A stretch of 64,000 nt of DNA from a virus (IMGVR_UViG_3300031555_002578), one strand, 5' to 3'. Counted from the first letter of the stretch, positions 26,615-47,810 are shown. Program-made: numbers and translations. Notes: generated from the sequence alone by a model not told the origin.

Positions 26615-28571
26615 TCATCTCCTTAATATTAATTTCATATATAATTTTATATATAATTCTTGATACCATTTAAGTTTGATGCCTAACATTTCTTCACAAA
26701 ATTTATACGGATTTCTTTTATAATAATCAATTCTTTCTTGATGTATAAACTTATCTAACTCAGAATAATTTTTATTCATTACTACTTCCTCCGATATTAG
26801 TAGGCATTACATCTGTTTTTCTTTGTAACCAATCTACCCACTCTTGTGAGGTTATTAAACAGCAACTACTTTGACTAACATAAATTGTTGCAGGAATAGG
26901 CACATACATATCTGGGTAATTCTCTTTATATTTCTCCCATTGTTCTGGCGTTCCACATCTACCAAAAATTTTTGCACTCATTTATTCAACCCCTCATACA
27001 TATATTTATATTCTAATAATTGTTGATATAATTTCTTAGAGATTGTAATATGCTCATCAGTATCGTAAACACAAAATACTACTTCTTTTTTACCGTCCAT
27101 TCTAGGCACTTCATATCCGAAAAATCCGTCTTCTTCAAACTTATTCATCTTAATAAAATGTTGGAATACTGCGTCTACAGCATTATCAGTTACATCTATT
27201 CTTGTCTGCGTATTCATAGTGCCTTGCTTTTCATTTACAGTTGCCCAATAAATTGTATTTGAAATTGGAGCAACAACTAATTTTTTCATATGCATTACCT
27301 CATTGTAAGTCTATGGTATATTCATTTGTTACTGTTTCATCTGGAACATAAATAATATAATATTCTGTTTGTTCTACTTCTCTAGGTTCTAATGAAAATA
27401 ATCCTTGCATCCAATTTGGAATCTCTCTATAAGATTGATGCACTTCAATTTTAGGATAACCTTCATATTCTTTAATGTAAGTTTTATTTGCAGGTATATA
27501 TCCAACCTTTTCTCCATGAGTTGAATTTCTAGCAAAATAATATCTCATTTCTCCATCAATAGTTATTCTTGAATAAAACATTCCACTAGAACCAGAGCCA
27601 ACGGTAGTAATATTATCTTGTAGAGCATTAATCTTAAAACTATAATGTGTTGTTTTTTCTGGACAAAACTCTATAGCAATACATGAAATCATAAATACAA
27701 TTATTGCATCTAAAATTATTCCCATGAATATAGAAAATCCAACATCAAACGAATCATAATGCGGTTCTACTGTATATAACCAATAAATAAATGCTCCAAC
27801 TATTAATAATCCTATAAAAAATGCTAACATATAATCACCTCATATATTTATTCGATATAAAAATAAGAAAGCCACCCTATAAATGAGTGGCTAACTTATT
27901 ATGTATTCGTTATATAATTATGTTCTAATCTAGCGTTTTTAACAGTATATTCTACCATTGTAACGCCATATTTTTTCAGCCATTTTTTATTAATTCTTTT
28001 CTTTTTATGTTTTCTAACCTGAACAGGAATTTTAAAAGTTACATCAACTTCATTTGAATCTCCTACTGATTCACACATTCTTTTTACTAATTCTTTATCA
28101 AATGATGCTTTTTCAAGTTCTATTGTACTTTTATAATCCATAAAACTAATAAGTGGAATTCCATCATGATTGTAAGCATATTCTGGACGATATGTAATTT
28201 CAAAATTAGAAATATTAACATCAGTCAATTCTTTATCATCAATATACATTTTACAATTTTTAAACACTTTAATCCTCCAAATTATATAAAATCACAGGTG
28301 TTTTATTTCCCATGTATGGTAATGCTCTTAAAACATTATAGTCAATCCAATCAACTGCTTCTATTTCAGAAAATTCTTCTTCATCCATTAACCAACGTAC
28401 CATTTTATCATAATCATAAACTGCTCTACCCTCATCAGACATACCAACAAAAGCATCTGCAAAATCATAATTGTCTAAAATAATTACATCATCTGACCAT
28501 CCATTATCTCTAATTTTATCAATAATATCTTTAACGGTCATTGCTCCATCTCCTTGTATTGATAGAACCAT
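26615..28571 (-). CDS. Small hypothetical genes (26615-26779 not in track, 26772-26981, 26978-27295, 27300-27830 membrane protein, 27899-28267, 28269-28571)
   Basis: Coupled ORFs with RBS. Confidence 0.65.
27859..27892 (-). terminator. Intrinsic terminator
   Basis: AGCCAC/GTGGCT hairpin followed by a U-rich tract on the minus strand. Confidence 0.65.
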
Positions 28572-30730
28572 CTTCTTAAAGTTACAATATCTGTTGGAAT
28601 CAAATCTCTATCCTCACCATCATGTAACTTCTTAACATAAGAATAGAATTCATTTGCTAATGGAGTTGTTAATGCAGAAGTTTTCATTGTGTATCCTTTT
28701 CTTAGTGTTTCATGAGAAATTCCTCTCATAAATTTCCAAAAATTATAATATGCAAGTTTTAGTTTTGTCATATATCCATTACTATCTTCAATAACAAATC
28801 CTTCAATATTTGTATTATTGTAATGATAGTCATTTGTAATTACTTCGTAGTACCAGTCATAGAATTCTTGCCATGTAGCAATCTCATAAGCCTTTTCTTT
28901 ATGGATTAATCCAATTTCATTTGCAACATTACACATATCTTCATAACTATATTTTTTAAATTCTAATTGATTATGAATAATATCTAGTAAGATAATTTTG
29001 CTTTCAGTATATTCAATGATATGAGGGTCATTTACAATATCAATTACTTCAAAAGCAAATGTTACATTATGCTCTTTAGAATATTGTTTAATTTTTTCTA
29101 ATTGCTCCCCAGTATGTTTTCTAGCAAGAATTTCTTTAAACCATATAGCATAATCACCATCAATATTAGATTTAGTTGTTACAAGTAAATTATCTTCTTT
29201 TTCATCATATCCAACTAATCCAAGATATCCATTTTCTTTAACATATACAGTAATAGGGAATTGTAATTTCCTCTGAAGATTTTCAATTTTAGTTTCTTCC
29301 ATCTCGTTAATATTAAAGAATTTCTTATAACCACGACATAAAACCTTCATTTTTTCATTATCAATATATAGCCCTCTTGCTTGAATAGTCTGTTTATTCC
29401 ACACTTTTTCATAGAAAGCCTGTTTTGTAAAATTAAAAGAAGAAATATGTCCAAATGTTTTTTCTGTAATATATTTGTTTTCTCTCATTTCCAGAATAGC
29501 ATCTGCTACATCTCCATTTAGATAATCTTTTTCTGTTTCATCTGGAATTCTAAATACTGGATTTGGAACAGAAATACCTTTAATTTCTTCATGAGTAATT
29601 TCTAAACATCTTAAATCTCCACCAAATTCTACATGACCTTCTAAATTAAACACTCTATCGTTTACTTTAATAGGTAAACGTTTTGTATTTCTATGTCCAT
29701 GAATCTGATAAAAATTATTTGGAGTTGTGTTAACCCAAGTATTTGCAATTACTTCAAAATCTTTGAAATCTCCTGCACCTTGCATCATTTGTTCTGTTGA
29801 AATAAATGTTAGAGGTTCGGTCATTGTTGCTAAACCTGCGTGAGTAACCAAAAAGAATTTATCATCATATTTGAAAAATGCACACTGAGCAAATTTTCTA
29901 TACAATTGACGAATATCTTTCTTATCAATTTCTGCATCAATTAATTGTTTCTTAGTTACAAATTCAAACTCCTTAGACATTGTGGTTTCATTATTTCCAT
30001 ATTTTCTAAGGAATTTTTCATGATTACCTTCCAGTAATAAAACATTTTTTTTATCTTTAATATTAATTAAAAATTTAACTACATCTCCATTTTCAAGTCC
30101 TCTATCAATATAATCACCTGTGAAAATATAAAATTCATCATCTTTAATTTCATCTTTTAAATAATATTTTAATACTGTATAACAACCATGAATGTCACCA
30201 ATAACATGAATTTTGCTATATTCAGAGAAATCAATTGGATTCATCCAAATAGTACTTAATTCATTTGGCTTGATTACTTTAATACCAGAAGGAACTTTTT
30301 GTGTTTTAAATCTTGAATACATTTTATCAATTGCTTCTTCTGGAACTTGTTTCAGTTCTGGACGCATTTTATTTCTTCTTTTAACTTCTTCAATAGAAAC
30401 ATCTGTAAAGTCAACACAATAAATACGATAACGATATTCTGAACACAGTTCTTTATATCTTGTCATTTCAGAAGTTTTGGAATTTGTTGCATCAATAACT
30501 GTAAATTCGCCATTCTTCATTCTTTCTTCAAGAATTTCAAATAATGTATTCCATACCTTTTTATCTTTGTTTGGAACGATTTGAAATTTACCATTAGCCA
30601 TTTGACAAGGACTTTGATACATCATTCTAATGTCATCGGCAGATAATGTATATGGTTTTAATCCGTTTTCTTCAATCCATGTAGATTTTCCTACACCTGC
30701 TGAACCTCTTAATAATAATAATACTCTCAA
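28538..30730 (-). CDS. Polynucleotide kinase - metallophosphoesterase - RNA ligase fusion (PNKP-like RNA repair enzyme)
   Basis: GSAGVGKST and IDATN (kinase); GDIHG, GDYIDRG, GNHE (phosphoesterase); KFFN, KENG, EGFV, KLK (ligase). Confidence 0.92.
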   Translation of the reverse strand: MRVLLLLRGSAGVGKSTWIEENGLKPYTLSADDIRMMYQSPCQMANGKFQIVPNKDKKVWNTLFEILEERMKNGEFTVIDATNSKTSEMTRYKELCSEYRYRIYCVDFTDVSIEEVKRRNKMRPELKQVPEEAIDKMYSRFKTQKVPSGIKVIKPNELSTIWMNPIDFSEYSKIHVIGDIHGCYTVLKYYLKDEIKDDEFYIFTGDYIDRGLENGDVVKFLINIKDKKNVLLLEGNHEKFLRKYGNNETTMSKEFEFVTKKQLIDAEIDKKDIRQLYRKFAQCAFFKYDDKFFLVTHAGLATMTEPLTFISTEQMMQGAGDFKDFEVIANTWVNTTPNNFYQIHGHRNTKRLPIKVNDRVFNLEGHVEFGGDLRCLEITHEEIKGISVPNPVFRIPDETEKDYLNGDVADAILEMRENKYITEKTFGHISSFNFTKQAFYEKVWNKQTIQARGLYIDNEKMKVLCRGYKKFFNINEMEETKIENLQRKLQFPITVYVKENGYLGLVGYDEKEDNLLVTTKSNIDGDYAIWFKEILARKHTGEQLEKIKQYSKEHNVTFAFEVIDIVNDPHIIEYTESKIILLDIIHNQLEFKKYSYEDMCNVANEIGLIHKEKAYEIATWQEFYDWYYEVITNDYHYNNTNIEGFVIEDSNGYMTKLKLAYYNFWKFMRGISHETLRKGYTMKTSALTTPLANEFYSYVKKLHDGEDRDLIPTDIVTLRRWFYQYKEMEQ

Positions 30731-39424: not shown

Positions 39425-41698
39425 TTAAATATTATTTTCTAAATCATCCATTACCATATTATAATTATGAATCATTGTTTCTGAATCTGCCCCAAATTTC
39501 CATTTATTAATCCATGTTGGCAGATATTCAAGATATTCTTTCTCACTGATATCATCTTCATTATCCATTAAGTAAGCAACGCTACTTACAAGCACTGGAA
39601 TGTTTGATTCACTCAATACTTCTGGATTCTCAATAACTCTATCTGTATAATCAACTAACATATCACAAAGAACAGTAATATATTCCATTGTTTCTTCTTC
39701 AATGAATTCATCTTCAATATATTCCTGCATAGCATCATGACTAATATCTTCTTTTTTATTAATAAGCATCATCGTCTGAATTGCTACTTTAATTAAAGAG
39801 GTTTCATCCATATCAATGCTATTCATTAGTCTTGTTTTTGAAAACTTCTCAACATAATCGCACCAGTTTGAATCTAACACAAAAGTATCTTCGTCATCAC
39901 TATAACCGTCAAAATACATTTTCATTAAAGTTTCCAGATGTTTTACTTTTCTCTGTAATACACTGTTGTCTTTTGTGCTTTTATTTCCGATTGTATTATA
40001 AGTAAATCCGTCAATTTCTGTTTCGCTTAATTCTTCATTAAATGCTTTAATGAATTCTACAAATTGTTCATCAGTAATACCGTATTTACTACATTTATTA
40101 AATAATGCAAACCAAATCTTAGAATGAGTAGAATTAAATACCTTTTCTGTTTCCTCATTTGCAACTTTACTAATTCTTTCAACTAAAGAAATAAAGTTAG
40201 CGTAGGTATCTTCTCTCACTTCTTCTGCAAAATTTTTGCAAGTCACACCGAATTCTTTATTATATTTATCGGGGAAATATGTAAGCATAATACTATCAGT
40301 AACGATTCTACGCATTTCACCTTTCAACTTATTGTTGTTGGTGTAATTAGAACCGACAAAATCTGTTTTAAAAAACTGCATTTCATCAATAATTCTATCG
40401 ATATAAAATGCACAACTTTCATCCATCTCTGTCCAACCATTCTGAGATTTATTCATTGGTCTAGCCCTGTTGAATCTTGCGATATCATAGGCAATCTCAA
40501 TTCTGTCACAGTTCAGATTCATTAATACTGGAATAGGATAATCAAGAATACTTTCCTGTAACTCCTGTGGCAACTGAAAGAATTTTTTACCTCTTACATC
40601 AAAAGTTTTTTCTTCATAAACAGGATTTCCATATTCATCACAACAAATTTCTCCATCTTTTGTCTTTTTTGTAGTCTGATATACAATAAATGGACGCTGA
40701 ACTTTTTTGCTAATAGCAAAATCACCCGCACAGAAAGAATCAATATTATTGCATCTCTGTTTGCCATCAATTAGCCAACGATAAATTAATCCATCTCTGA
40801 TTTCCTCAGACACAATAATCTGAGTAAGTGCTTTGCCCCACATCATATCTACCATTAATTCACTTTTTTCAAAACTATTCCACATGCCAGAATATCTCTG
40901 TAATAAATGGTCATCTCTCCATTCTCTGTTTTTTAATTTTTTTCGCATAGAAGATACAGAGATATTAGTGTCTTTAGTTTTTTCTGATGTGTTCGGTAAA
41001 CTGCTCATGATATCATCTCCTTTTTTCGTACTAAATCCAGAACCATTTCTGCGTAAAATTTTTAATCGTTCATAGGATTTAATTTCCTTTAACTGTAGTT
41101 CATATTGTTTTCTTGTAATTCCTAAAGCATCTTGAATTTCTTGTCCAGTCATGTCTTCCATTTTCATTCTTAGAATTTTATTCTGCAAATCAGATAAACT
41201 AGATAGAAACTTTTCAATATGTTCATCTAGGAATTGATTATTTAATTCTGACGATTCAAAGAAATCTAAACCATCAGATTGATTACATAAAAAATCTCCG
41301 ATTGTAAAAGATTCATCTTCGCCAATCGGAGTTTCTATAGATACTGTTTGGAGATAGTGTACATCCCCATTGTCATCTACAATGCGAGAACTTCGTTTCT
41401 CTGCATTCCTGTACTTGATATTATCTATAATAGCAAGTTTGATTGCACGATAAATGTAACCTTCAAAATTACCTTTTGTTTTATCATATGTAGGTCTGTC
41501 AGCCCTTGGATTTTTAATGGAATCTAAAATGTCTGAAATAGTGTCACCTGCGATAGAGTAAAAATCATCTCTATCTTTTCCAGATATTCCACCATATTTT
41601 GCAATCATTTTGTCAACCATTCGTTGCAATTTGTAGGCATTATCTTTATATAATTCATATATATAATTTTGCATACCTACATCTATTACTCCATCCAT
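39425..41698 (-). CDS. Sigma-70-like N-terminal region fused to a DUF262 (ParB-superfamily)-like domain
   Basis: YDKTKGNFEGYI, SIETPIG and a region-4-like HTH (MTGQEIQDALGIT); then QR..W, LIDGKQR and RFN motifs. Confidence 0.65.
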   Translation of the reverse strand: MDGVIDVGMQNYIYELYKDNAYKLQRMVDKMIAKYGGISGKDRDDFYSIAGDTISDILDSIKNPRADRPTYDKTKGNFEGYIYRAIKLAIIDNIKYRNAEKRSSRIVDDNGDVHYLQTVSIETPIGEDESFTIGDFLCNQSDGLDFFESSELNNQFLDEHIEKFLSSLSDLQNKILRMKMEDMTGQEIQDALGITRKQYELQLKEIKSYERLKILRRNGSGFSTKKGDDIMSSLPNTSEKTKDTNISVSSMRKKLKNREWRDDHLLQRYSGMWNSFEKSELMVDMMWGKALTQIIVSEEIRDGLIYRWLIDGKQRCNNIDSFCAGDFAISKKVQRPFIVYQTTKKTKDGEICCDEYGNPVYEEKTFDVRGKKFFQLPQELQESILDYPIPVLMNLNCDRIEIAYDIARFNRARPMNKSQNGWTEMDESCAFYIDRIIDEMQFFKTDFVGSNYTNNNKLKGEMRRIVTDSIMLTYFPDKYNKEFGVTCKNFAEEVREDTYANFISLVERISKVANEETEKVFNSTHSKIWFALFNKCSKYGITDEQFVEFIKAFNEELSETEIDGFTYNTIGNKSTKDNSVLQRKVKHLETLMKMYFDGYSDDEDTFVLDSNWCDYVEKFSKTRLMNSIDMDETSLIKVAIQTMMLINKKEDISHDAMQEYIEDEFIEEETMEYITVLCDMLVDYTDRVIENPEVLSESNIPVLVSSVAYLMDNEDDISEKEYLEYLPTWINKWKFGADSETMIHNYNMVMDDLENNI

Positions 41699-41712
41699 CG
41701 GCTTAACCCCCT

Positions 41713-42342
41713 TTATATGTTAAACAACTCTGCCTTTTGTCTTGGGTTATACTTTCTTTTATCTAAAGCAGAAATTTGTTTTTTAATATCCTCAGAAACA
41801 ACTTTTCCTACTTCTTTATCTAAGATAATATTTAATACAGTTAGTTCGTTTTTAATGGAACGTCTTTTAATCATAATCTTTTTAAGTCTTGCATATGCTT
41901 GGTATCCTTGATAAGCATTACAGTTCACAAGTTCAATATAGTGTTCTTCGTCAGATTTCTCTTGGTCTATAACACTTAATTGTTTTCTTAATTCTTCTCT
42001 ACGTTTACTTGCTTCATCAGCCAATCCATTTAGTTCTTCTAACTTGGTTAGCCATTGAGAAACATAATCCGTTTCCATTACCTTTTCAGTATTTTCATTT
42101 AACTGTTCATTAGTTAATGCTTTTACTTCTTTGGGGTCTGCAACAATTACTTGCTGTACTCTAAATATCTTTTTTAAAGGTTTTGGCAAACAGTTTTTAA
42201 GAATATTTTCTGCTTGAACTTTTGTGTAATGTTCTGCCATAGATTCCCCATATGAGGGAACATATTTTCCTTGATGATTACGAAATATAAAACGTTGACC
42301 ATCTGTTAGTATGTAATTTTTTATTTGCGTAATGATAACCAC
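41713..42342 (-). CDS. Hypothetical coiled-coil protein
   Basis: 209-aa ORF directly downstream of the RNA cluster. Confidence 0.8.
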   Translation of the reverse strand: MVIITQIKNYILTDGQRFIFRNHQGKYVPSYGESMAEHYTKVQAENILKNCLPKPLKKIFRVQQVIVADPKEVKALTNEQLNENTEKVMETDYVSQWLTKLEELNGLADEASKRREELRKQLSVIDQEKSDEEHYIELVNCNAYQGYQAYARLKKIMIKRRSIKNELTVLNIILDKEVGKVVSEDIKKQISALDKRKYNPRQKAELFNI

Positions 42343-42367
42343 ATCCTATCTTCCTGTAATTAAGGAG

Positions 42368-42449
42368 TGGAGAAAGAACGACTTGAACGCTCAACTTGGC
42401 AACATATAATCTTCCAAACGCCATGTTTTACCAGTTAAACTACTTCCCC
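42368..42449 (-). tRNA. Atypical tRNA: UGG (Pro) triplet inside a 17-nt anticodon loop; G3-U70/A73 acceptor
   Basis: GGGGAAG/TTTCTCC acceptor, GTTT/AAAC D-stem, TGGCG/TGCCA stem around TTTGGAAGATTATATGT, GAGCG-TTCAAGT-CGTTC T-arm. Confidence 0.75.
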
Positions 42450-42550
42450 ATATTGGGCAGATTCTACTGCCCAAAGACTACAGAAAGGAACTACTAGATG
42501 AAAAACAAGAGATTTTACCTAGTATTTTATCGGGTCATCACTCCGACAAA

Positions 42551-42722
42551 GGCAAGATGCATGGAATTGAACCATTCTTAGTGTTTGTGGGCAACCATGT
42601 TTTCTTCAAAATATTGAGCCTACCCTAAAGAAAAGAAGGTTCACACCTCTCTTTCTTAATGGTAGATAAATAATTTAAATACTATTGATTCACTAAGAGC
42701 CTACCGTACAAGGCACATTTGC
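42551..42722 (-). ncRNA. tRNA-like RNA with a 107-nt insert replacing the anticodon loop
   Basis: GCAAATG/CATCTTGC acceptor, GCCT/AGGC D-stem, TCTTAGTG/CACTAAGA stem, ATGG-TTCAATT-CCAT T-arm. Confidence 0.7.
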
Positions 42723-42933
42723 TTAGTTTATGCCAACCAATCCTCACAGACATAAACATGACCACCTTCTATACACTGTGGTCTTCCCCATCCGTGTTTC
42801 CAAAAAAGAATATAAATGACATTTCCATACAGAAACATCGTATCACCTCAACACATGACGGAATTGAAGTGTTGAGATTTTCAACTGTGGCTAACAGTTG
42901 TTGCATAGATGCCGACAAAACATCTGTGCGTAA

Positions 42934-43006
42934 AGTCGGTAACGAGGGTCGAACTCGCAATCCCCAGAGTGGAAGTCTGGTGTGTTAACCATTACACTAT
43001 ACCGAC
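42934..43006 (-). tRNA. tRNA-Gly(UCC)
   Basis: Canonical cloverleaf, CCAGA-CTTCCAC-TCTGG, U73; no encoded CCA. Confidence 0.9.
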
Positions 43007-43274
43007 TTAGAGATAGCGGAGAGAACAAAACCAACACTGTCCTCTCCAAGAATCAATACAAATGATAAGAGGTTAGGTTATTAAAAATAGAAACCGTAAT
43101 AACCTATTAAGGAATTTAAAATTTTAGATTAACAATTAGACTTTGGGCTTACACTGTGCTGACCAGTGTGGATAGTAACCGTACTCAGCCCATGTTACTG
43201 ACGGGGCAGATACCGTCAGTATAAAATAAAAGGATTGAAACAAGAAAGTTAATTAGGCAACACTTTCTGTTTAA

Positions 43275-43357
43275 GGGGCAGTCCTTGAATCGAACAAAGG
43301 TTAAGCCATATATACATTCGTGGTAGTTGTGGTGGAAATGTATACTTTCTTCTGCCC
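43275..43357 (-). ncRNA. tRNA-like RNA lacking a D-stem, with an 18-nt C-rich loop
   Basis: GGGCAG/CTGCCC acceptor, TATACATT/AATGTATA stem, CCTTTG-TTCGATT-CAAGG T-arm. Confidence 0.6.
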
Positions 43358-43441
43358 ATAATGTGATAATCTTTTACACCAAAGACTATCACAAACATTT
43401 TAGAGGAACTACAATGAATTTCATTTAGAATCCGTTGTATA

Positions 43442-43603
43442 GGCATAGTGAAGGAATCGAACCTTCTTAATAGGATAAACACTAAAACGAGGTTTTTATT
43501 TCTAAAGGAATGATATGTACAAAATGCTAAATCATAAAGGAAAGATGATTTTATTCAGTGTGAGTAATAGTGATTTATGCATTTATCCTACTCCATTCTA
43601 TGC
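43442..43603 (-). ncRNA. tRNA-like RNA with a 12-bp stem and 96-nt insert
   Basis: GCATAG/CTATGC acceptor, TAGGATAAATGC/GTGTTTATCCTA stem, GAAGG-TTCGATT-CCTTC T-arm. Confidence 0.72.
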
Positions 43604-43720
43604 ATATTATATAGAATAGGCTGAAAGATTAATTGCCGTTGTAATATATTTGCAGATACATTACGAATCCAACAACCTATTCTATATGGAAGGGGTACAA
43701 TCATGAAATGACTTCCGATG

Positions 43721-43867
43721 ATGAGAAGTTGGGGAATCGAACCCCAAATAAAACAAATTTTCACGATGTTTGCCTACAATGTGGAGTACATTATCCAGAA
43801 TCAGATTAACGAGGATGTACTTAGACGGGTATTGCAGATTGTTTTTATTTTCCTACATACTTCTCAT
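43721..43867 (-). ncRNA. tRNA-like RNA with a structured insert
   Basis: ATGAGAAGT/ACTTCTCAT acceptor, AATAAAAACAA/TTGTTTTATT stem, TGGGG-TTCGATT-CCCCA T-arm. Confidence 0.72.
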
Positions 43868-43878
43868 ATTATATAAGT

Positions 43879-44339
43879 TACCCACCGTTTATCAGCCTTG
43901 CAGATGCTTACGGACAATATCATTACTCCAAACTGTAACTCAAGGATTTTGTAAAACGTTTTTCTTTATCGGGACTATAAGAAACCAACATCATCATAAA
44001 TTGAGTACATACTATATTCCAAATTAAATCATTAAACAATCTTTTAATAGAATATAAGTCCCTTCTTTGCACTTTTAACTTTATTATTTAGAACTGAACT
44101 TTGAGCATTGAACTTTAATTCTTTAAACCTTGAACATTGAACTTTACAGTGCATTAGAATCCGTTTCTATAACGGGAATATAATTTCATCTTGTAAAATA
44201 TGTAATATGTTTTTAAGAATAATGCCTTAACAGGGCAGTTCTTGATAATATCGGATTTTATTTATCTTTTTACATTGGTCTACTTTCCGATTAAAAGACA
44301 AATGAATGATAGTTAAAAGTTTCCGATAAACGATGGATA
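43879..44339 (-). ncRNA. ~460-nt structured RNA with an internal heptamer-repeat tract
   Basis: TATCCATCGTTTATCGG (44339-44323) pairs over 17 bp with CTGATAAACGGTGGGTA (43895-43879), using G-U pairs available only on the minus strand; no credible ORF. Confidence 0.75.
44065..44145 (-). repeat. ~11 degenerate tandem 7-mers, consensus AAAGTTC
   Basis: AAAGTTC AATGTTC AAGGTTT AAAGAATT AAAGTTC AATGCTC AAAGTTC AGTTCT AAATAAT AAAGTTA AAAGTGC. Confidence 0.85.
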
Positions 44340-44363
44340 TTTTTATTTAGTTAGAAACACTTA

Positions 44364-45008
44364 TCAATAAGTAAATTCGATTTCTGTCAGAGAATTGCTC
44401 ACAGACAGAGCAGAATCAATTTCAACGAGGAAATCATTGATTTTTGTTTCCAGTTCTCTAATTTTATCAACGATTTTAATTTCATCAATAAAATCATAAG
44501 AATTCTGTTCAATGTATTCTTTTTTAGCCAGAGAAGCATTTTCGCCTTTCTTAGCATCTTCATTAGAACCATACATTTCTACAATGTATTTTTCTGCTTT
44601 TCTTTCCAGTTCATCACCATTTCTCATAGTGATAGTATTCTGTTCTTTATGATACTGTTTTTTCAGTTCTGCCAGAAGGTACTGGTCATACTCAACGCCA
44701 TGATTTTTCATCTCAATGGCTTCTGCAACAGTACATTCAATATCATTGATTTTTACCATTGTAACTGCATTGGACAGAACCAGTGCTTTTTTCATGGCAT
44801 TTCTTCTTTTGATTAGAGAAGTTGCTCTGTCATAATCACCTTGCATTTTTGCTCTGTAATCTGTCAGAGTAATGCCAGAAATCTTCATATTAGAATGTTT
44901 GTTTGCAATACAGTATTTACCTGTATCGATTGCATCAATGATTCTTTTATCCATTGTTTTCAGTTCCGCTAAACATTTGTGTACGGACATTCTTTCAGTT
45001 GTAGCCAT
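44364..45008 (-). CDS. All-helical coiled-coil protein embedded in the RNA cluster (start MATTERM at 45008)
   Basis: AGGAG RBS 9 nt upstream; SVHKCLAELK, LSNAVT, TVAEAIEMK and EIDSALSVSNSLT suggest an internally duplicated helical repeat reminiscent of DIP1984-like proteins. Confidence 0.85.
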   Translation of the reverse strand: MATTERMSVHKCLAELKTMDKRIIDAIDTGKYCIANKHSNMKISGITLTDYRAKMQGDYDRATSLIKRRNAMKKALVLSNAVTMVKINDIECTVAEAIEMKNHGVEYDQYLLAELKKQYHKEQNTITMRNGDELERKAEKYIVEMYGSNEDAKKGENASLAKKEYIEQNSYDFIDEIKIVDKIRELETKINDFLVEIDSALSVSNSLTEIEFTY

Positions 45009-45051
45009 AATTAACATCTCCTTTTAAATTTTGATTTTTGAATTTTAATGA

Positions 45052-45126
45052 AAAATCGTACTGGGAATCGAACCCAGTGTTCCTGCTGTGAAAAGAGCAG
45101 AGCCTTTACCTCTTGGCTAACGATTA
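45052..45126 (-). tRNA. tRNA-Glu-like with an 8-nt anticodon loop (CUUUUCAC) and 6-bp T-stem
   Basis: CTGCT-CTTTTCAC-AGCAG; ACTGGG-TTCGATT-CCCAGT; AATCGT/ACGATT acceptor. Confidence 0.75.
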
Positions 45127-45212
45127 CTTTGCCATCGTCATGGCTATCTCAGTTCCCACACTGAGATATTTTACAGGCATAAGTCTATCATTTGAGTGAT
45201 AGTTATGTATGT

Positions 45213-45726
45213 TGTTGTAAACAGATTATTCAGTACCTTCAACTGTGGTTACATGACTATGTATGAACCAGAATCTAAAAACCAACAACCAGAAATCGTT
45301 TCTACATTTAAGGTGACAGCCTATATAATATACTTCGATTTCCATTTTCGCTTTCACCTCTGTCACGATGAAAACTGAACGACTGTAATAATGTTAATAT
45401 CTTGAATCTCAAATAGGCAGAAAAAATACAAGATATTTAGATTACAGTATGATAGTTCAATAAAAGAGAATAGCATATATTGCACTATCGTTGTTTGTAC
45501 CAACCATCCACACAGATACAAACTTGTCCATCTTCCATAATTATGGACTTCCCACATTGTTAAAGTACGCTTAATCGGTTTTGACTTGGCTGAAAACAAT
45601 TCAGAACGATAAGCCAGAATCTAATGTGTGCTTGTGGTATAAGTATGACACATCAGATGTTGTGCAATTAAAACCACACAAACTTCATTGCACTTGTCTT
45701 ACGCATTTATGATGTTATTTACAACA
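45213..45726 (-). ncRNA. Large (~510 nt) multi-helix noncoding RNA
   Basis: 11-bp closing helix TGTTGTAAATA/TGTTTACAACA and at least eight internal stems; lies between tRNA genes. Confidence 0.65.
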
Positions 45727-45761
45727 GAGCAATGGGATTATAAGACATTCCACCCAAGTAG

Positions 45762-45855
45762 CGGCAACGGAGGGATTTGAACCCCCATGTCGGATGCAAA
45801 GCCGACACAACTGATTTCAAGTCAGTGCCGTTATAACCAATTTCGGTACGTTGCC
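45762..45855 (-). tRNA. tRNA-Ser(UGA)
   Basis: ACTGA-CTTGAAA-TCAGT, long variable arm, G73. Confidence 0.93.
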
Positions 45856-45864
45856 ATTATAAAT

Positions 45865-45934
45865 TTGGAGAACTGTGGATTTGAACCACTCTACCCCGTA
45901 AAGGGTGTGCTAACCGTTACACTAACGCTCTCCA
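45865..45934 (-). tRNA. Degenerate tRNA with a shortened anticodon arm
   Basis: GGAGAGC/GTTCTCC acceptor, intact D and T arms; anticodon arm only ACCCT-TTAC-GGGGT. Confidence 0.65.
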
Positions 45935-46071
45935 GATTGTGACTGATTTCTCAGTCACGATACATAGCAACTCTATAACCCTTTATGAACCTAGAAAGGA
46001 ACGTGTAGATATCAATTTAAACCAATTTGTTTACCAGACAAATTTTCGACCAGTATTAAATTGATATCTGA

Positions 46072-46153
46072 TTGGGAAGGAAGGATTTGAACCTTCACAC
46101 ATGTAACCATGCTAGGGTGCTACCCTATGCGTCTGCCATTTCGCCACTTCCCT
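46072..46153 (-). tRNA. tRNA-Leu-like scaffold with a 5-nt anticodon loop
   Basis: GCG/CGC D-stem, TAGGG-TAGCA-CCCTA, variable-arm hairpin, GAAGG-TTCAAAT-CCTTC, A73. Confidence 0.7.
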
Positions 46154-46195
46154 AGATTGTGGCTGAAAATATCAACCACATGTCCTAAGACTAAA

Positions 46196-46278
46196 TCGGG
46201 CTAACGGGAGTTGAACCCGTACTGCTCAAAGCAAATGGATTTTAAGTCCATCGTGTCTGCCTGTTCCACCATAGCCCG
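46196..46278 (-). tRNA. tRNA-Leu(UAA)
   Basis: ATGGA-CTTAAAA-TCCAT, variable arm, A73. Confidence 0.92.
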
Positions 46279-46435
46279 TTATTGCATGATGATTTACTAA
46301 TCTAACTTCCCGTAAAAATGAATGCTTTTGTATGTAAAAAACAAAAATCACATTTTAGATGAAAAGTTATGTATTATGTTTAAAAATTTTGAAAGACGTT
46401 TTGCAGAAGTTTAATCAGCAAATCATCATACTAAA

Positions 46436-46509
46436 TGGGTCTTGAAGGACTTGAACCTTCGACCGACCGCTTATGAGGCGGTTGCTCTGACCATCTAAGC
46501 TAAAGACCC
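46436..46509 (-). tRNA. tRNA with CAU anticodon, Ile2-type
   Basis: ACCGC-CTCATAA-GCGGT; body resembles Firmicutes tRNA-Ile2 rather than the initiator. Confidence 0.85.
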
Positions 46510-46512
46510 TTA

Positions 46513-46832
46513 TGGGGTGATAGTTTTACCAAGATAGTTACAGATTGCTACTCTCCTAACTATCCGTTACTCCAACTAACAAGGATGCACATTATATGTA
46601 TAACCCCACGCAGGACAGCATTTCCCTACTTCCACACTTTCGCAGTGGCATTGCGTCTAGCATCTGATAACTTTCAATCACTTTCAAACTACTTACGTTC
46701 TCCTTGGTTCGTTTGATTGTAATTACAAACATGGCAGTCAACATAACCATTACTAGATTAAAGCGTTATCCTTTCGGACGAGTGAACTACCCACTCCTAT
46801 GAACCTAGCCGTTAGTTCTTTCCTAACAGTCA
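46513..46832 (-). ncRNA. ~320-nt structured RNA at the head of the cluster
   Basis: Stems CTGTTAG/CTAACGG, GAGTG/CACTC, GTCC-GAAA-GGAT, CCAC..GAAA..GTGG, GATAGTTA/TAACTATC, TGGGGT/ACCCCA; GC higher than coding DNA. Confidence 0.55.
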
Positions 46833-46895
46833 GAGGATATACATTTTATTAAGTTTTTGTTATTTAAATAAGGAATTTTTGTGGAAAACACCACA

Positions 46896-46924
46896 TTGAC
46901 ATGAGAAGAAAAAATATGTAAAAT
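46896..46924 (+). promoter_or_regulatory. Plus-strand sigma-A promoter
   Basis: TTGACA-17 nt-TAAAAT. Confidence 0.7.
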
Positions 46925-46989
46925 AAAAGAGCAGGTGTATCCTGTATATTATAAGATTCTTTTCAGTGTCTTGTAATGTTTTTGGTTTC

Positions 46990-47037
46990 GACCTCACTAC
47001 AAACTTTGCCGAGCCAGTAGTGAGGTCTTTTCTTATT
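46990..47037 (+). terminator. Plus-strand intrinsic terminator
   Basis: GACCTCACTAC/GTAGTGAGGTC 11-bp stem followed by TTTTCTTATTT. Confidence 0.75.
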
Positions 47038-47046
47038 TACATCCTT

Positions 47047-47075
47047 ATTATACCAAACATACATTCGTTTGTCAA
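47047..47075 (-). promoter_or_regulatory. Consensus sigma-A promoter driving the RNA cluster
   Basis: TTGACA-17 nt-TATAAT with TGn extension and A-rich upstream element. Confidence 0.85.
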
Positions 47076-47118
47076 GTATTTTTTTGGATTTTTTACGAAC
47101 ATTTGTTTGTTTTCCATT

Positions 47119-47448
47119 TTATTCATCTATTGCTTCTTTTTGTGCAAAAGTAATACAGTGAATAAAATTCGGTTCTTTCAAAACATTCATAAGTTCCATT
47201 CTTCCAAAAAAGGAATGGTTTTCGTAATCAATGGATTTCGCTTTTTCAATCAGTTTATATCCATCAAACTTTTTCATCCATTCTGTATTCCCACTGGTAT
47301 GTGTTTCTACATTAATAATAGTTACACAAATATTATCAGAAGGGGATTCATCTATTAACCTTTTTGCTTCTTTTTTAGAAACATACTTGGTAACGACTGT
47401 ACGATTGTATTTTCTTTTGCTTTCTCTCATCGTAACACTTCCTTCCAA
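47119..47448 (-). CDS. Hypothetical protein coupled to the MazF-like gene
   Basis: Overlaps the upstream stop; GGAAGG RBS. Confidence 0.7.
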   Translation of the reverse strand: MEGSVTMRESKRKYNRTVVTKYVSKKEAKRLIDESPSDNICVTIINVETHTSGNTEWMKKFDGYKLIEKAKSIDYENHSFFGRMELMNVLKEPNFIHCITFAQKEAIDE

Positions 47449-47810
47449 TTAATTTTTTCACCATAGAAGAACGATAAATAACATACTTTATTTACTTTAT
47501 TTTTCTGATTTGGGTTTGTAATTACTCCCAATTTTCTTACAACTTCACTTTTGCATATAGTAGTTAGTTGTTCACCAAGAAGCATCGAATAGTATTCTAG
47601 CCCATTTTCTGTCTCTACATCAAGACATTCATGTGTTGGTAAATATTCTTTTTTAATGACATGAGTTAGAGGAACTACTGTTACTACTTCTGCACTTGAA
47701 GTACCACGTTCATTACTTACAATTATACATGGTCTTCTTTTGCTTTGCACAGAACCAGTGGCATTTCTATTTTCAACTTCTATTACATCGTATCTATGAA
47801 ACTCCATCAT
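47427..47810 (-). CDS. PemK/MazF-family endoribonuclease-like protein
   Basis: GSVQSKRRPCIIVSN, VVPLT, LPTH, EQLTTICK. Confidence 0.88.
   Translation of the reverse strand: MMEFHRYDVIEVENRNATGSVQSKRRPCIIVSNERGTSSAEVVTVVPLTHVIKKEYLPTHECLDVETENGLEYYSMLLGEQLTTICKSEVVRKLGVITNPNQKNKVNKVCYLSFFYGEKINWKEVLR

Follow-up and report, generated by a model that had tools for sequence, protein, structure and literature searches.

tRNA-shaped units and a putative tRNA-punctuated non-coding precursor in a phage genome

Known tRNA-linked RNAs and the phage locus

tRNA-like processing marks are known from MALAT1/mascRNA and from the tRNA punctuation model of mitochondria (RF01684 is the Rfam entry that we take to represent the MALAT1/mascRNA-type mark). 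Acceptor stem and T arm close a large foreign insert in tmRNA and in the engineered tRNA scaffold for RNA expression, and the T4 species 1 and 2 RNAs are small stable RNAs of unknown role that are encoded in, and processed from, a phage tRNA cluster. Firmicutes have C/U-rich anti-SD sRNAs (RsaE/RoxS and other sRNAs with UCCC motifs). In E. coli, RNAs from tRNA spacers act by pairing, as PMC8383071 describes for 3'ETS-leuZ (citing Lalaouna et al. 2015), which in that account is a sponge of specific sRNAs (RyhB and RybB).

The locus studied here lies in a 64-kb stretch of gut-phage DNA (the window; G+C ~29%) whose long ORFs are all on the minus strand. PHROG matches in the window include a DNA polymerase, a RecJ-like exonuclease, a GroEL-like chaperonin and a kinase-phosphatase-RNA ligase protein. 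At 28538–30730 is a healing-and-sealing enzyme of 730 aa that combines polynucleotide kinase, phosphoesterase and RNA ligase parts (PHROG 8238, E=6e-228) and could repair or join cut tRNAs. The window genes have strong AGGAG/GAGGUGA ribosome-binding sites of the Firmicute type, such as are seen in phages with low-G+C Gram-positive hosts. The IMG/VR relatives are contigs of gut type, some of which are complete enough to reach about 150 kb, and the proteins of the flanking genes in the closest ones are just 56–63% identical to those of the window. A protein-free stretch of 2 kb (42343–44363) holds the features reported below, and a second one (45018–46700) contains five more tRNAs. With moderate confidence, we regard the studied stretch as the downstream half of a minus-strand phage tRNA island lying within a long non-coding precursor. 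Genes for a PemK/MazF-like endoribonuclease (47427–47810; Pfam E=3e-13) and a 109-aa partner (47119–47448) head the island, as they do in the relative L081 (1931–2586), and no antitoxin-like gene is evident upstream. As the mazF-like gene goes with the island in the window and L081 but in no other relative, we rejected a link between MazF and the island.

Within the studied stretch, the D and anticodon arms give way to 30–330 nt of other RNA in four units named U1, U2, U3 and X, which form a chain with tRNAs and spacers (S1–S4). As in the mascRNA and punctuation systems, a non-decoding tRNA-shaped fold adjoins another RNA (U1 comes after an RNA containing RAGATH-27, and X after tRNA-Gly), and tRNA-trimming enzymes would set the ends of the neighbour. 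Unlike those systems, the units here are serial, belong to a bacteriophage and carry large inserts inside them, and their cleavage would be predicted from shape; there is also no sequence relation to mascRNA, as Rfam's weak mascRNA match falls on tRNA-Ser only. The T4 species 1 and 2 RNAs are likewise RNAs within a phage tRNA cluster, a likeness of description, whereas the window units keep only acceptor stem and T arm and have inserts of up to 330 nt. With tmRNA and the tRNA scaffold the window units share a big insert closed by acceptor stem and T arm, but no tmRNA was found by ARAGORN or Rfam, and there is no tag ORF. The spacers may resemble RsaE/RoxS in having unpaired, hairpin-flanked pyrimidine tracts complementary to the SD, in a host group with strong SDs; RsaE/RoxS, in contrast, have their own promoter and terminator and form defined families, whereas here there is no Rfam match and no terminator-like hairpin, and the tract lies inside pre-tRNA spacers. 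3'ETS-leuZ is a base-pairing RNA from the maturation of a polycistronic pre-tRNA, and for the window spacers we propose a similar release, with pairing as a possibility; the sponge has its specific sRNAs, whereas no partner was found here among 96 start regions of the window, and the conserved tract is a mimic of the 16S tail.

In the literature on nested or tRNA-like phage RNAs and on RAGATH-27, we found no published description of this layout. Theta ribozymes adjoin phage tRNAs (PMC10879173); Rfam models matched no self-cleaving ribozyme (theta/HDV-like, hammerhead or twister) beside the tRNA ends, and no ribozyme family at all, over 41500–47500 at E≤10. The same search gave no group I intron, tmRNA, Y RNA, ROOL or GOLLD.

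tRNAs and tRNA-shaped units

On the minus strand of the window, TTCRA-loop T arms are confined to 42376–46509: six in tRNAs recognised by Rfam, and four (one less regular) in U1, U2, U3 and X, which give no match to RF00005 even at E≤10. In each of these units an acceptor helix of 6–8 bp directly adjoins the T arm, abutting its 5-bp stem (7–8 bp in U1, 6 bp plus A-A in U2 and U3, 8 bp with one bulge in X). The D arm and an anticodon arm with a 7-nt loop are absent, and folds give long arms or unstructured inserts instead. ARAGORN makes long-intron calls at X, U2 and U1 (tRNA-Phe, tRNA-Stop and tRNA-Gln with introns of 223, 85 and 77 nt, respectively), which we rejected because of weak D/anticodon arms and non-canonical intron positions. 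Relatives contain many units with a perfect 7-bp acceptor and non-canonical spans of 38–305 nt. The acceptor helix beside each T arm, together with these similar units, thus shows that the tRNA-like units reported in the initial annotation are real, as four minus-strand RNAs keeping acceptor stem and T arm.

U1 (43721..43866, minus strand; all features below are on this strand) has an insert of ~110 nt replacing the D/anticodon arms, the acceptor (U)GAGAAGU/ACUUCUC(A) and a T arm at 43730–43746, and its MFE fold closes with the acceptor stem; a scanner reports it as a perfect 7-bp acceptor beside a TTCGATT T arm, with a span of 143. U2 (43442..43603) has the acceptor GCAUAG/CUAUGC with A-A at 7:66, a T arm at 43450–43466, and a 14-bp arm bearing a weakly folded AU-rich insert that contains two CAU..UUCCUUU words. 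The 5' part of U2, with the upstream TATATAATAT, is a 75% repeat of the corresponding part of U1 (family D4), and the two are paralogues with compensatory differences between their acceptor strands. U3 (43275..43357) is tRNA-sized (83 nt), with the acceptor GGGCAG/CUGCCC, A-A at 7:66, a T arm at 43283–43299 and no recognisable anticodon arm. Words like TATATAAUAU are found directly 5' of U1 (43868–43877), U2 (43604–43613) and a mini unit in L081 (5350–5362); one of them scores 10/12 as a sigma-70-type promoter (43895–43868), and on the strength of such words some units may have their own transcription start.

The stretch also contains a canonical tRNA-Gly (UCC) at 42934..43006, found by both ARAGORN and Rfam (67.2 bits), and 5 nt after it comes X (42551..42929), a structured RNA of ~380 nt with a T arm at 42560–42576. 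X is closed by the acceptor-like helix GCA(C)AGAUG/CAUCUUGC adjoining the T arm, which is also the closing helix of its MFE fold (-109.5 kcal/mol, z -3.1). The X core consists of a hairpin CAACAC/GUGUUG, the sequence GGGGAAG, a hairpin with loop ARUGUAUAGWAG and a hairpin with loop UCUGUGAGGAWKGUUGG. These hairpins recur with compensatory, different stem sequences in L081 (5560–5720), L124 and L125, a lineage in which the core is without the tRNA-like cap. No Rfam family matches the core, and a pattern search of IMG/VR for homologues of X returned 42 matches, about the chance number, of which only the L081 contig is real. At the downstream end is a tRNA with 10 extra nt in the anticodon loop (42368..42449), recognised by Rfam (46.9 bits, with a 12-nt loop insertion) and by ARAGORN in intron mode; its anticodon is UGG, provided that the insert sits at 37/38.

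In the relatives, what comes after the conserved C1 block is without exception a tRNA, a tRNA-like unit or some other folded RNA. U1 follows a ~460-nt RAGATH-27-containing RNA (43884–44344), and relatives have a tRNA or a mini tRNA-like unit there. The RAGATH-27 match (44250–44337; 72.5 bits, just under the threshold of 76.1; 87 bits for the L081 homologue) is followed by AAAGUUC-type repeats and then by a block (43866–43973) that is ~77% conserved in some 35 relatives. The mini unit at the U1 position in L081 (5366–5419, 54 nt) has a 7-bp acceptor AAAUAUU/AAUAUUU, a T arm and two tiny hairpins, and is kept in L124 and L125. The island region is poorly conserved (~560 nt in the L081 lineage vs 1470 nt in the window). 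Conservation tests are thin, as one distant lineage alone (L081, L124 and L125) shares parts of the region, and a global alignment of the window with L081 is uninformative beyond the first 500 nt.

Some relatives carry tRNA genes with a tRNA or tRNA-shaped insert in the anticodon loop (L074:9447–9594, L041:8276–8424, L066:10122–10269 and L041:9312–9467), and in two contigs a whole second tRNA lies inside the loop (Asn GUU in L074, a CUA-anticodon tRNA in L041). Excision of a nested tRNA by RNase P/Z could leave halves with 3'-OH and 5'-P that an RNA ligase can seal. A tRNA-Leu(UAA)-like gene (L065:7097–7402) has a 224-nt anticodon-loop insert that is possibly a group I intron. One case of nesting was noted in Lak phages by Devoto et al. 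2019, who remarked that tRNA introns were possibly tRNAs themselves (PMC6784885).

Four animal-gut metatranscriptome runs contain contigs 90–99% like parts of the region. Such contigs bridge U2-S2-U3 (43322–43551) and U2-S1-U1 (43556–43753) and cover X at 42586–42917; they carry no information on strand, ends or levels, DNA may be present in the libraries, depths cannot rank parts, and uncovered parts carry no meaning. In three runs from two studies, contigs end at 43882–43886, where the conserved block ends, which is at most a weak hint of cleavage.

Spacers, leader hairpins and anti-SD words

S1 (43604..43720, 117 nt) has a stem GGAAG/CUUCC holding a CCCCUUCC tract (43688–43695), and then a 79-nt hairpin (43609–43687; z -4.9, a stability reached by none of 200 shuffles) followed by AAUAU and U2. 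S2 (43358..43441, 84 nt) has a weakly folded 5' part with a UUCCUCU tract (about 43404–43411) and a leader hairpin (43363–43392, z -3.4) whose tail, AUUAU, runs up to U3. In S3 (43007..43274, 268 nt) there are a AUCCUUUU tract, a structured element of 87 nt (43138–43224, a CUGACGG hairpin plus a three-way fold) and the leader hairpin of tRNA-Gly (43018–43047). The element was found by covariance model R1 only in the window and the L081/L124/L125 lineage, where 90% of cells pair and 3 pairs are changed on both sides. S4 (42450..42550, 101 nt) contains two hairpins, then the unpaired sequence AGUUCCUUUCUGUAGUCU, 8 nt of which match the 16S tail (42482–42489), and then the leader hairpin (42453–42474, tail UAU); its fold has a z of -5.2. 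The four hairpins predicted by the initial annotation fold as claimed, the remaining one (43197–43221) within a fold of z -2.8.

Each of the four spacers ends in a stable hairpin 3–11 nt before the next 5' end. With units and spacers arranged in a chain and hairpins just before the next unit, cutting of the RNase P/Z type would release discrete spacer RNAs. Leader hairpins precede the island's canonical tRNAs too, and across the phage group a hairpin of at least 6 bp ends 1–9 nt before the tRNA in 43% of 187 non-redundant leaders, vs 24% (sd 4%) for shuffles. The hairpins had been taken for special 3' ends of sRNAs; as they stand in front of tRNAs group-wide, they are instead a general tRNA leader element. 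None of the spacer hairpins is like an intrinsic terminator, promoter-like sites are at chance level, and the spacers have no Rfam match. The nearest relatives (L081, L124 and L125) do not share the spacer sequences.

The initial annotation had further read the spacers as antisense to ribosome-binding sites, from SD and ATG words on the plus strand. All eight words are where it placed them. AGGAA-N(1-10)-ATG occurs 4 times in 1271 nt, vs 0.40 expected from first-order Markov simulations of the stretch (P=0.002), and with a broader SD core the numbers are 4 vs 0.81 (P=0.04), a modest excess; the large excess over the remaining plus strand mostly reflects lost GC skew in the stretch (-0.04 in 42450–43720 vs about -0.25 elsewhere). 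The sites are not independent: those in S2 and S4 share CAU..GUAGUUCCUYU plus UAGUCUUUGG, both U2 sites share AUCAU..UUCCUUUA, and by sequence both pairs look like duplicates. The repeating order of unit, anti-SD segment, hairpin and next unit holds for S1 (site 43688–43705), S2 (43402–43416) and S4 (42484–42500) and fails for three words that are inside units (43504–43517 and 43536–43547 in the U2 insert; the weak word 43331–43340 in U3); the anti-AUG of S4, moreover, is base-paired as part of a hairpin. On the RNA strand of the window, words matching the 16S tail show no excess over Markov expectation and no strand bias. The plus-strand words are the mirror image of pyrimidine tracts and nearby CAU triplets, and these triplets are not conserved and come partly from duplicated modules.

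The relatives give a stronger signal. Their inter-tRNA spacers (74 non-redundant, 14.2 kb, window excluded) contain 11 matches of at least 8 nt to ATCACCTCCTTTCT on the RNA strand, vs a Markov expectation of 0.59 (maximum in 500 simulations: 4) and 4 on the other strand; they are 14 times as dense there as elsewhere in the loci (Fisher P=1e-8). A first tally with the window included gave 13 matches in 87 spacers, where permuted strings averaged 1.3. The tracts have a mean unpaired probability of 0.73 (vs 0.46) and are usually located 21–40 nt after the upstream tRNA, before the leader hairpin. The four 7-mers of the 16S tail rank 1st, 1st, 1st and 3rd in their C-content classes among pyrimidine-only 7-mers; at the 6-mer level, SD-like complements equal anti-SD words in frequency on the RNA strand. 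Processing alone hardly accounts for an enrichment so strong and sequence-specific, which hints at a base-pairing role. The window tracts are degenerate (UUCCUUUCU, UUCCUCU, CCCCUUCC), with 6–8 nt and unpaired probabilities of 0.4–0.8, and taken alone are not above chance. Thus, at the group level, the anti-SD part of the proposed segments stands, as an enriched and unpaired 16S-tail tract (CCUCCUUUCU), and the anti-AUG part does not: the matching CAU is not conserved, and words against SD plus AUG number 19 in relatives vs 12.2 expected, mostly from one clade. We note that in L036 (8171–8232; also in L033 and L035) a leader hairpin before a tRNA with a 51-nt insert has the loop CAU-N9-CACCUCCUUUCU, with 12 nt identical to the 3' tail of Firmicute 16S rRNA; its opposite strand reads as a perfect SD plus ATG.

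The initial annotation had found no matching gene start in the window, and our searches agree. Using blastn, the best hit of the island to the 96 start regions of the window has 23.8 bits, compared with 26.5 +/- 2.5 for shuffled sequences (P=0.98), and complementarity no greater than that of shuffles speaks against spacers as gene-specific seeds. RNAduplex with eight segments places the best pairing of both S1 (-27.8 kcal/mol, P 0.03) and S2 (-22.3 kcal/mol, P 0.05) at the mazF-like gene start, a borderline result with P values uncorrected for the 8 segments, and we rejected it given the blastn result.

Readings of the locus and their meaning

We favour, at roughly even confidence, the reading of the stretch as a tRNA-punctuated non-coding precursor with leader modules. 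In it, tRNA-Gly, the tRNA with the enlarged loop and the four tRNA-shaped caps would all belong to one long minus-strand precursor. RNase P and RNase Z recognise acceptor stem and T arm, and just these are kept by the caps; caps and tRNAs would act as cutting marks that chop the precursor. The spacers would be leader modules, with hairpins that may serve processing or stability. They follow one plan: the 5' part is folded, a pyrimidine tract like the 16S tail, short and mostly unpaired, comes next, and the leader hairpin closes the spacer. Ordinary tRNAs of this phage and its relatives are preceded by the same plan. The anatomy is seen directly in the window and the layout recurs in relatives; the cutting and any trans-acting role we infer from them. 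If the spacers act in trans, the conserved part would be the generic anti-SD tract and not gene-specific seeds.

Three other accounts of the stretch can be weighed on the same evidence. It is very unlikely that the spacers form a gene-specific antisense array, in which variable seeds would cover both SD and AUG in selected host mRNAs (those of defence genes, for example), as the initial annotation had it. Five plus-strand words do combine an SD core with ATG at proper spacing, and the L033/L035/L036 clade has its CAU-N9-CACCUCCUUUCU loop; the array has no target among the 96 start regions, its best RNAduplex P values are only 0.03 and 0.05 before correction for eight segments, the 19 words in relatives (vs 12.2) are mostly of one clade, three seeds are inside units and one anti-AUG is paired, and L081, L124 and L125 do not share these sequences, so that gene-specific seeds are unsupported. 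We give hardly any weight to transcription of the plus strand with the SD+ATG words starting real mini-proteins: good SD spacing at 42484–42500 and 43504–43517 precedes ORFs of 27 and 34 codons, but the other ORFs have 2, 4, 5 and 7 codons, the window's long ORFs are all on the minus strand, the ORFs run antisense through T arms, and opposite-strand SD-like words in relatives mostly have no start codon at 4–12 nt or open short ORFs. The stretch might otherwise be debris, with decayed or duplicated tRNA genes and flanks, SD+ATG words arisen by chance or duplication, and function only in the intact tRNAs. The visible duplication of modules (U1/U2, and the S2/S4 and U2 words), the poor conservation (~560 nt vs 1470 nt) and an SD+ATG enrichment that is modest once duplicates are discounted agree with this; on the other hand, compensatory change has preserved the acceptor helices of U1 and U2, shuffles fold far less stably, the structures of X and the S3 element are kept across lineages, and X is covered by RNA-library contigs, and we consider debris unlikely.

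A generic anti-SD role is possible, and we count it as a live but less likely rival of the precursor reading. Here the excised spacers, small RNAs protected by hairpins on either side, would carry an unpaired mimic of the 16S tail that pairs with the SDs (GGAGG/GAGGUGA) of many mRNAs, or decoys a factor or nuclease recognising the 16S tail, and translation would be changed globally, not gene by gene. Consistent with such RNAs are the strand-biased, sequence-specific and mostly unpaired CCUCCUUUCU-like tracts of the relatives' inter-tRNA spacers, their usual position past the upstream tRNA and ahead of the leader hairpin, the strong Firmicute-type SDs of the phage genes, and weaker copies of the module in S4, S2 and S1 and at about 46000 of the window. 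Against them, the phage relies on these very SDs for its own genes, the window tracts are short and not above chance, and SD-like complements are equally frequent on the RNA strand at the 6-mer level. A wider extension, which we think rather doubtful, is that tRNA islands of gut and rumen phages are small-RNA factories, whose 16S-tail mimics would bind SDs or decoy a factor or nuclease aimed at the anti-SD and so reshape translation during infection.

Returning to the tRNA-punctuated precursor, its units defeat tRNA finders and could be taken for pseudogenes or introns in annotation, and the result counts for annotation even if units and spacers are mere leaders. Should the spacers or the capped RNAs have a function, phage tRNA clusters would do more than help codon usage: they would be processing platforms that yield many small RNAs per transcript by means of the host's tRNA-trimming enzymes. 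A concrete hypothesis of translation control by phages of Gram-positive gut bacteria follows from the group-level excess of 16S-tail mimics.
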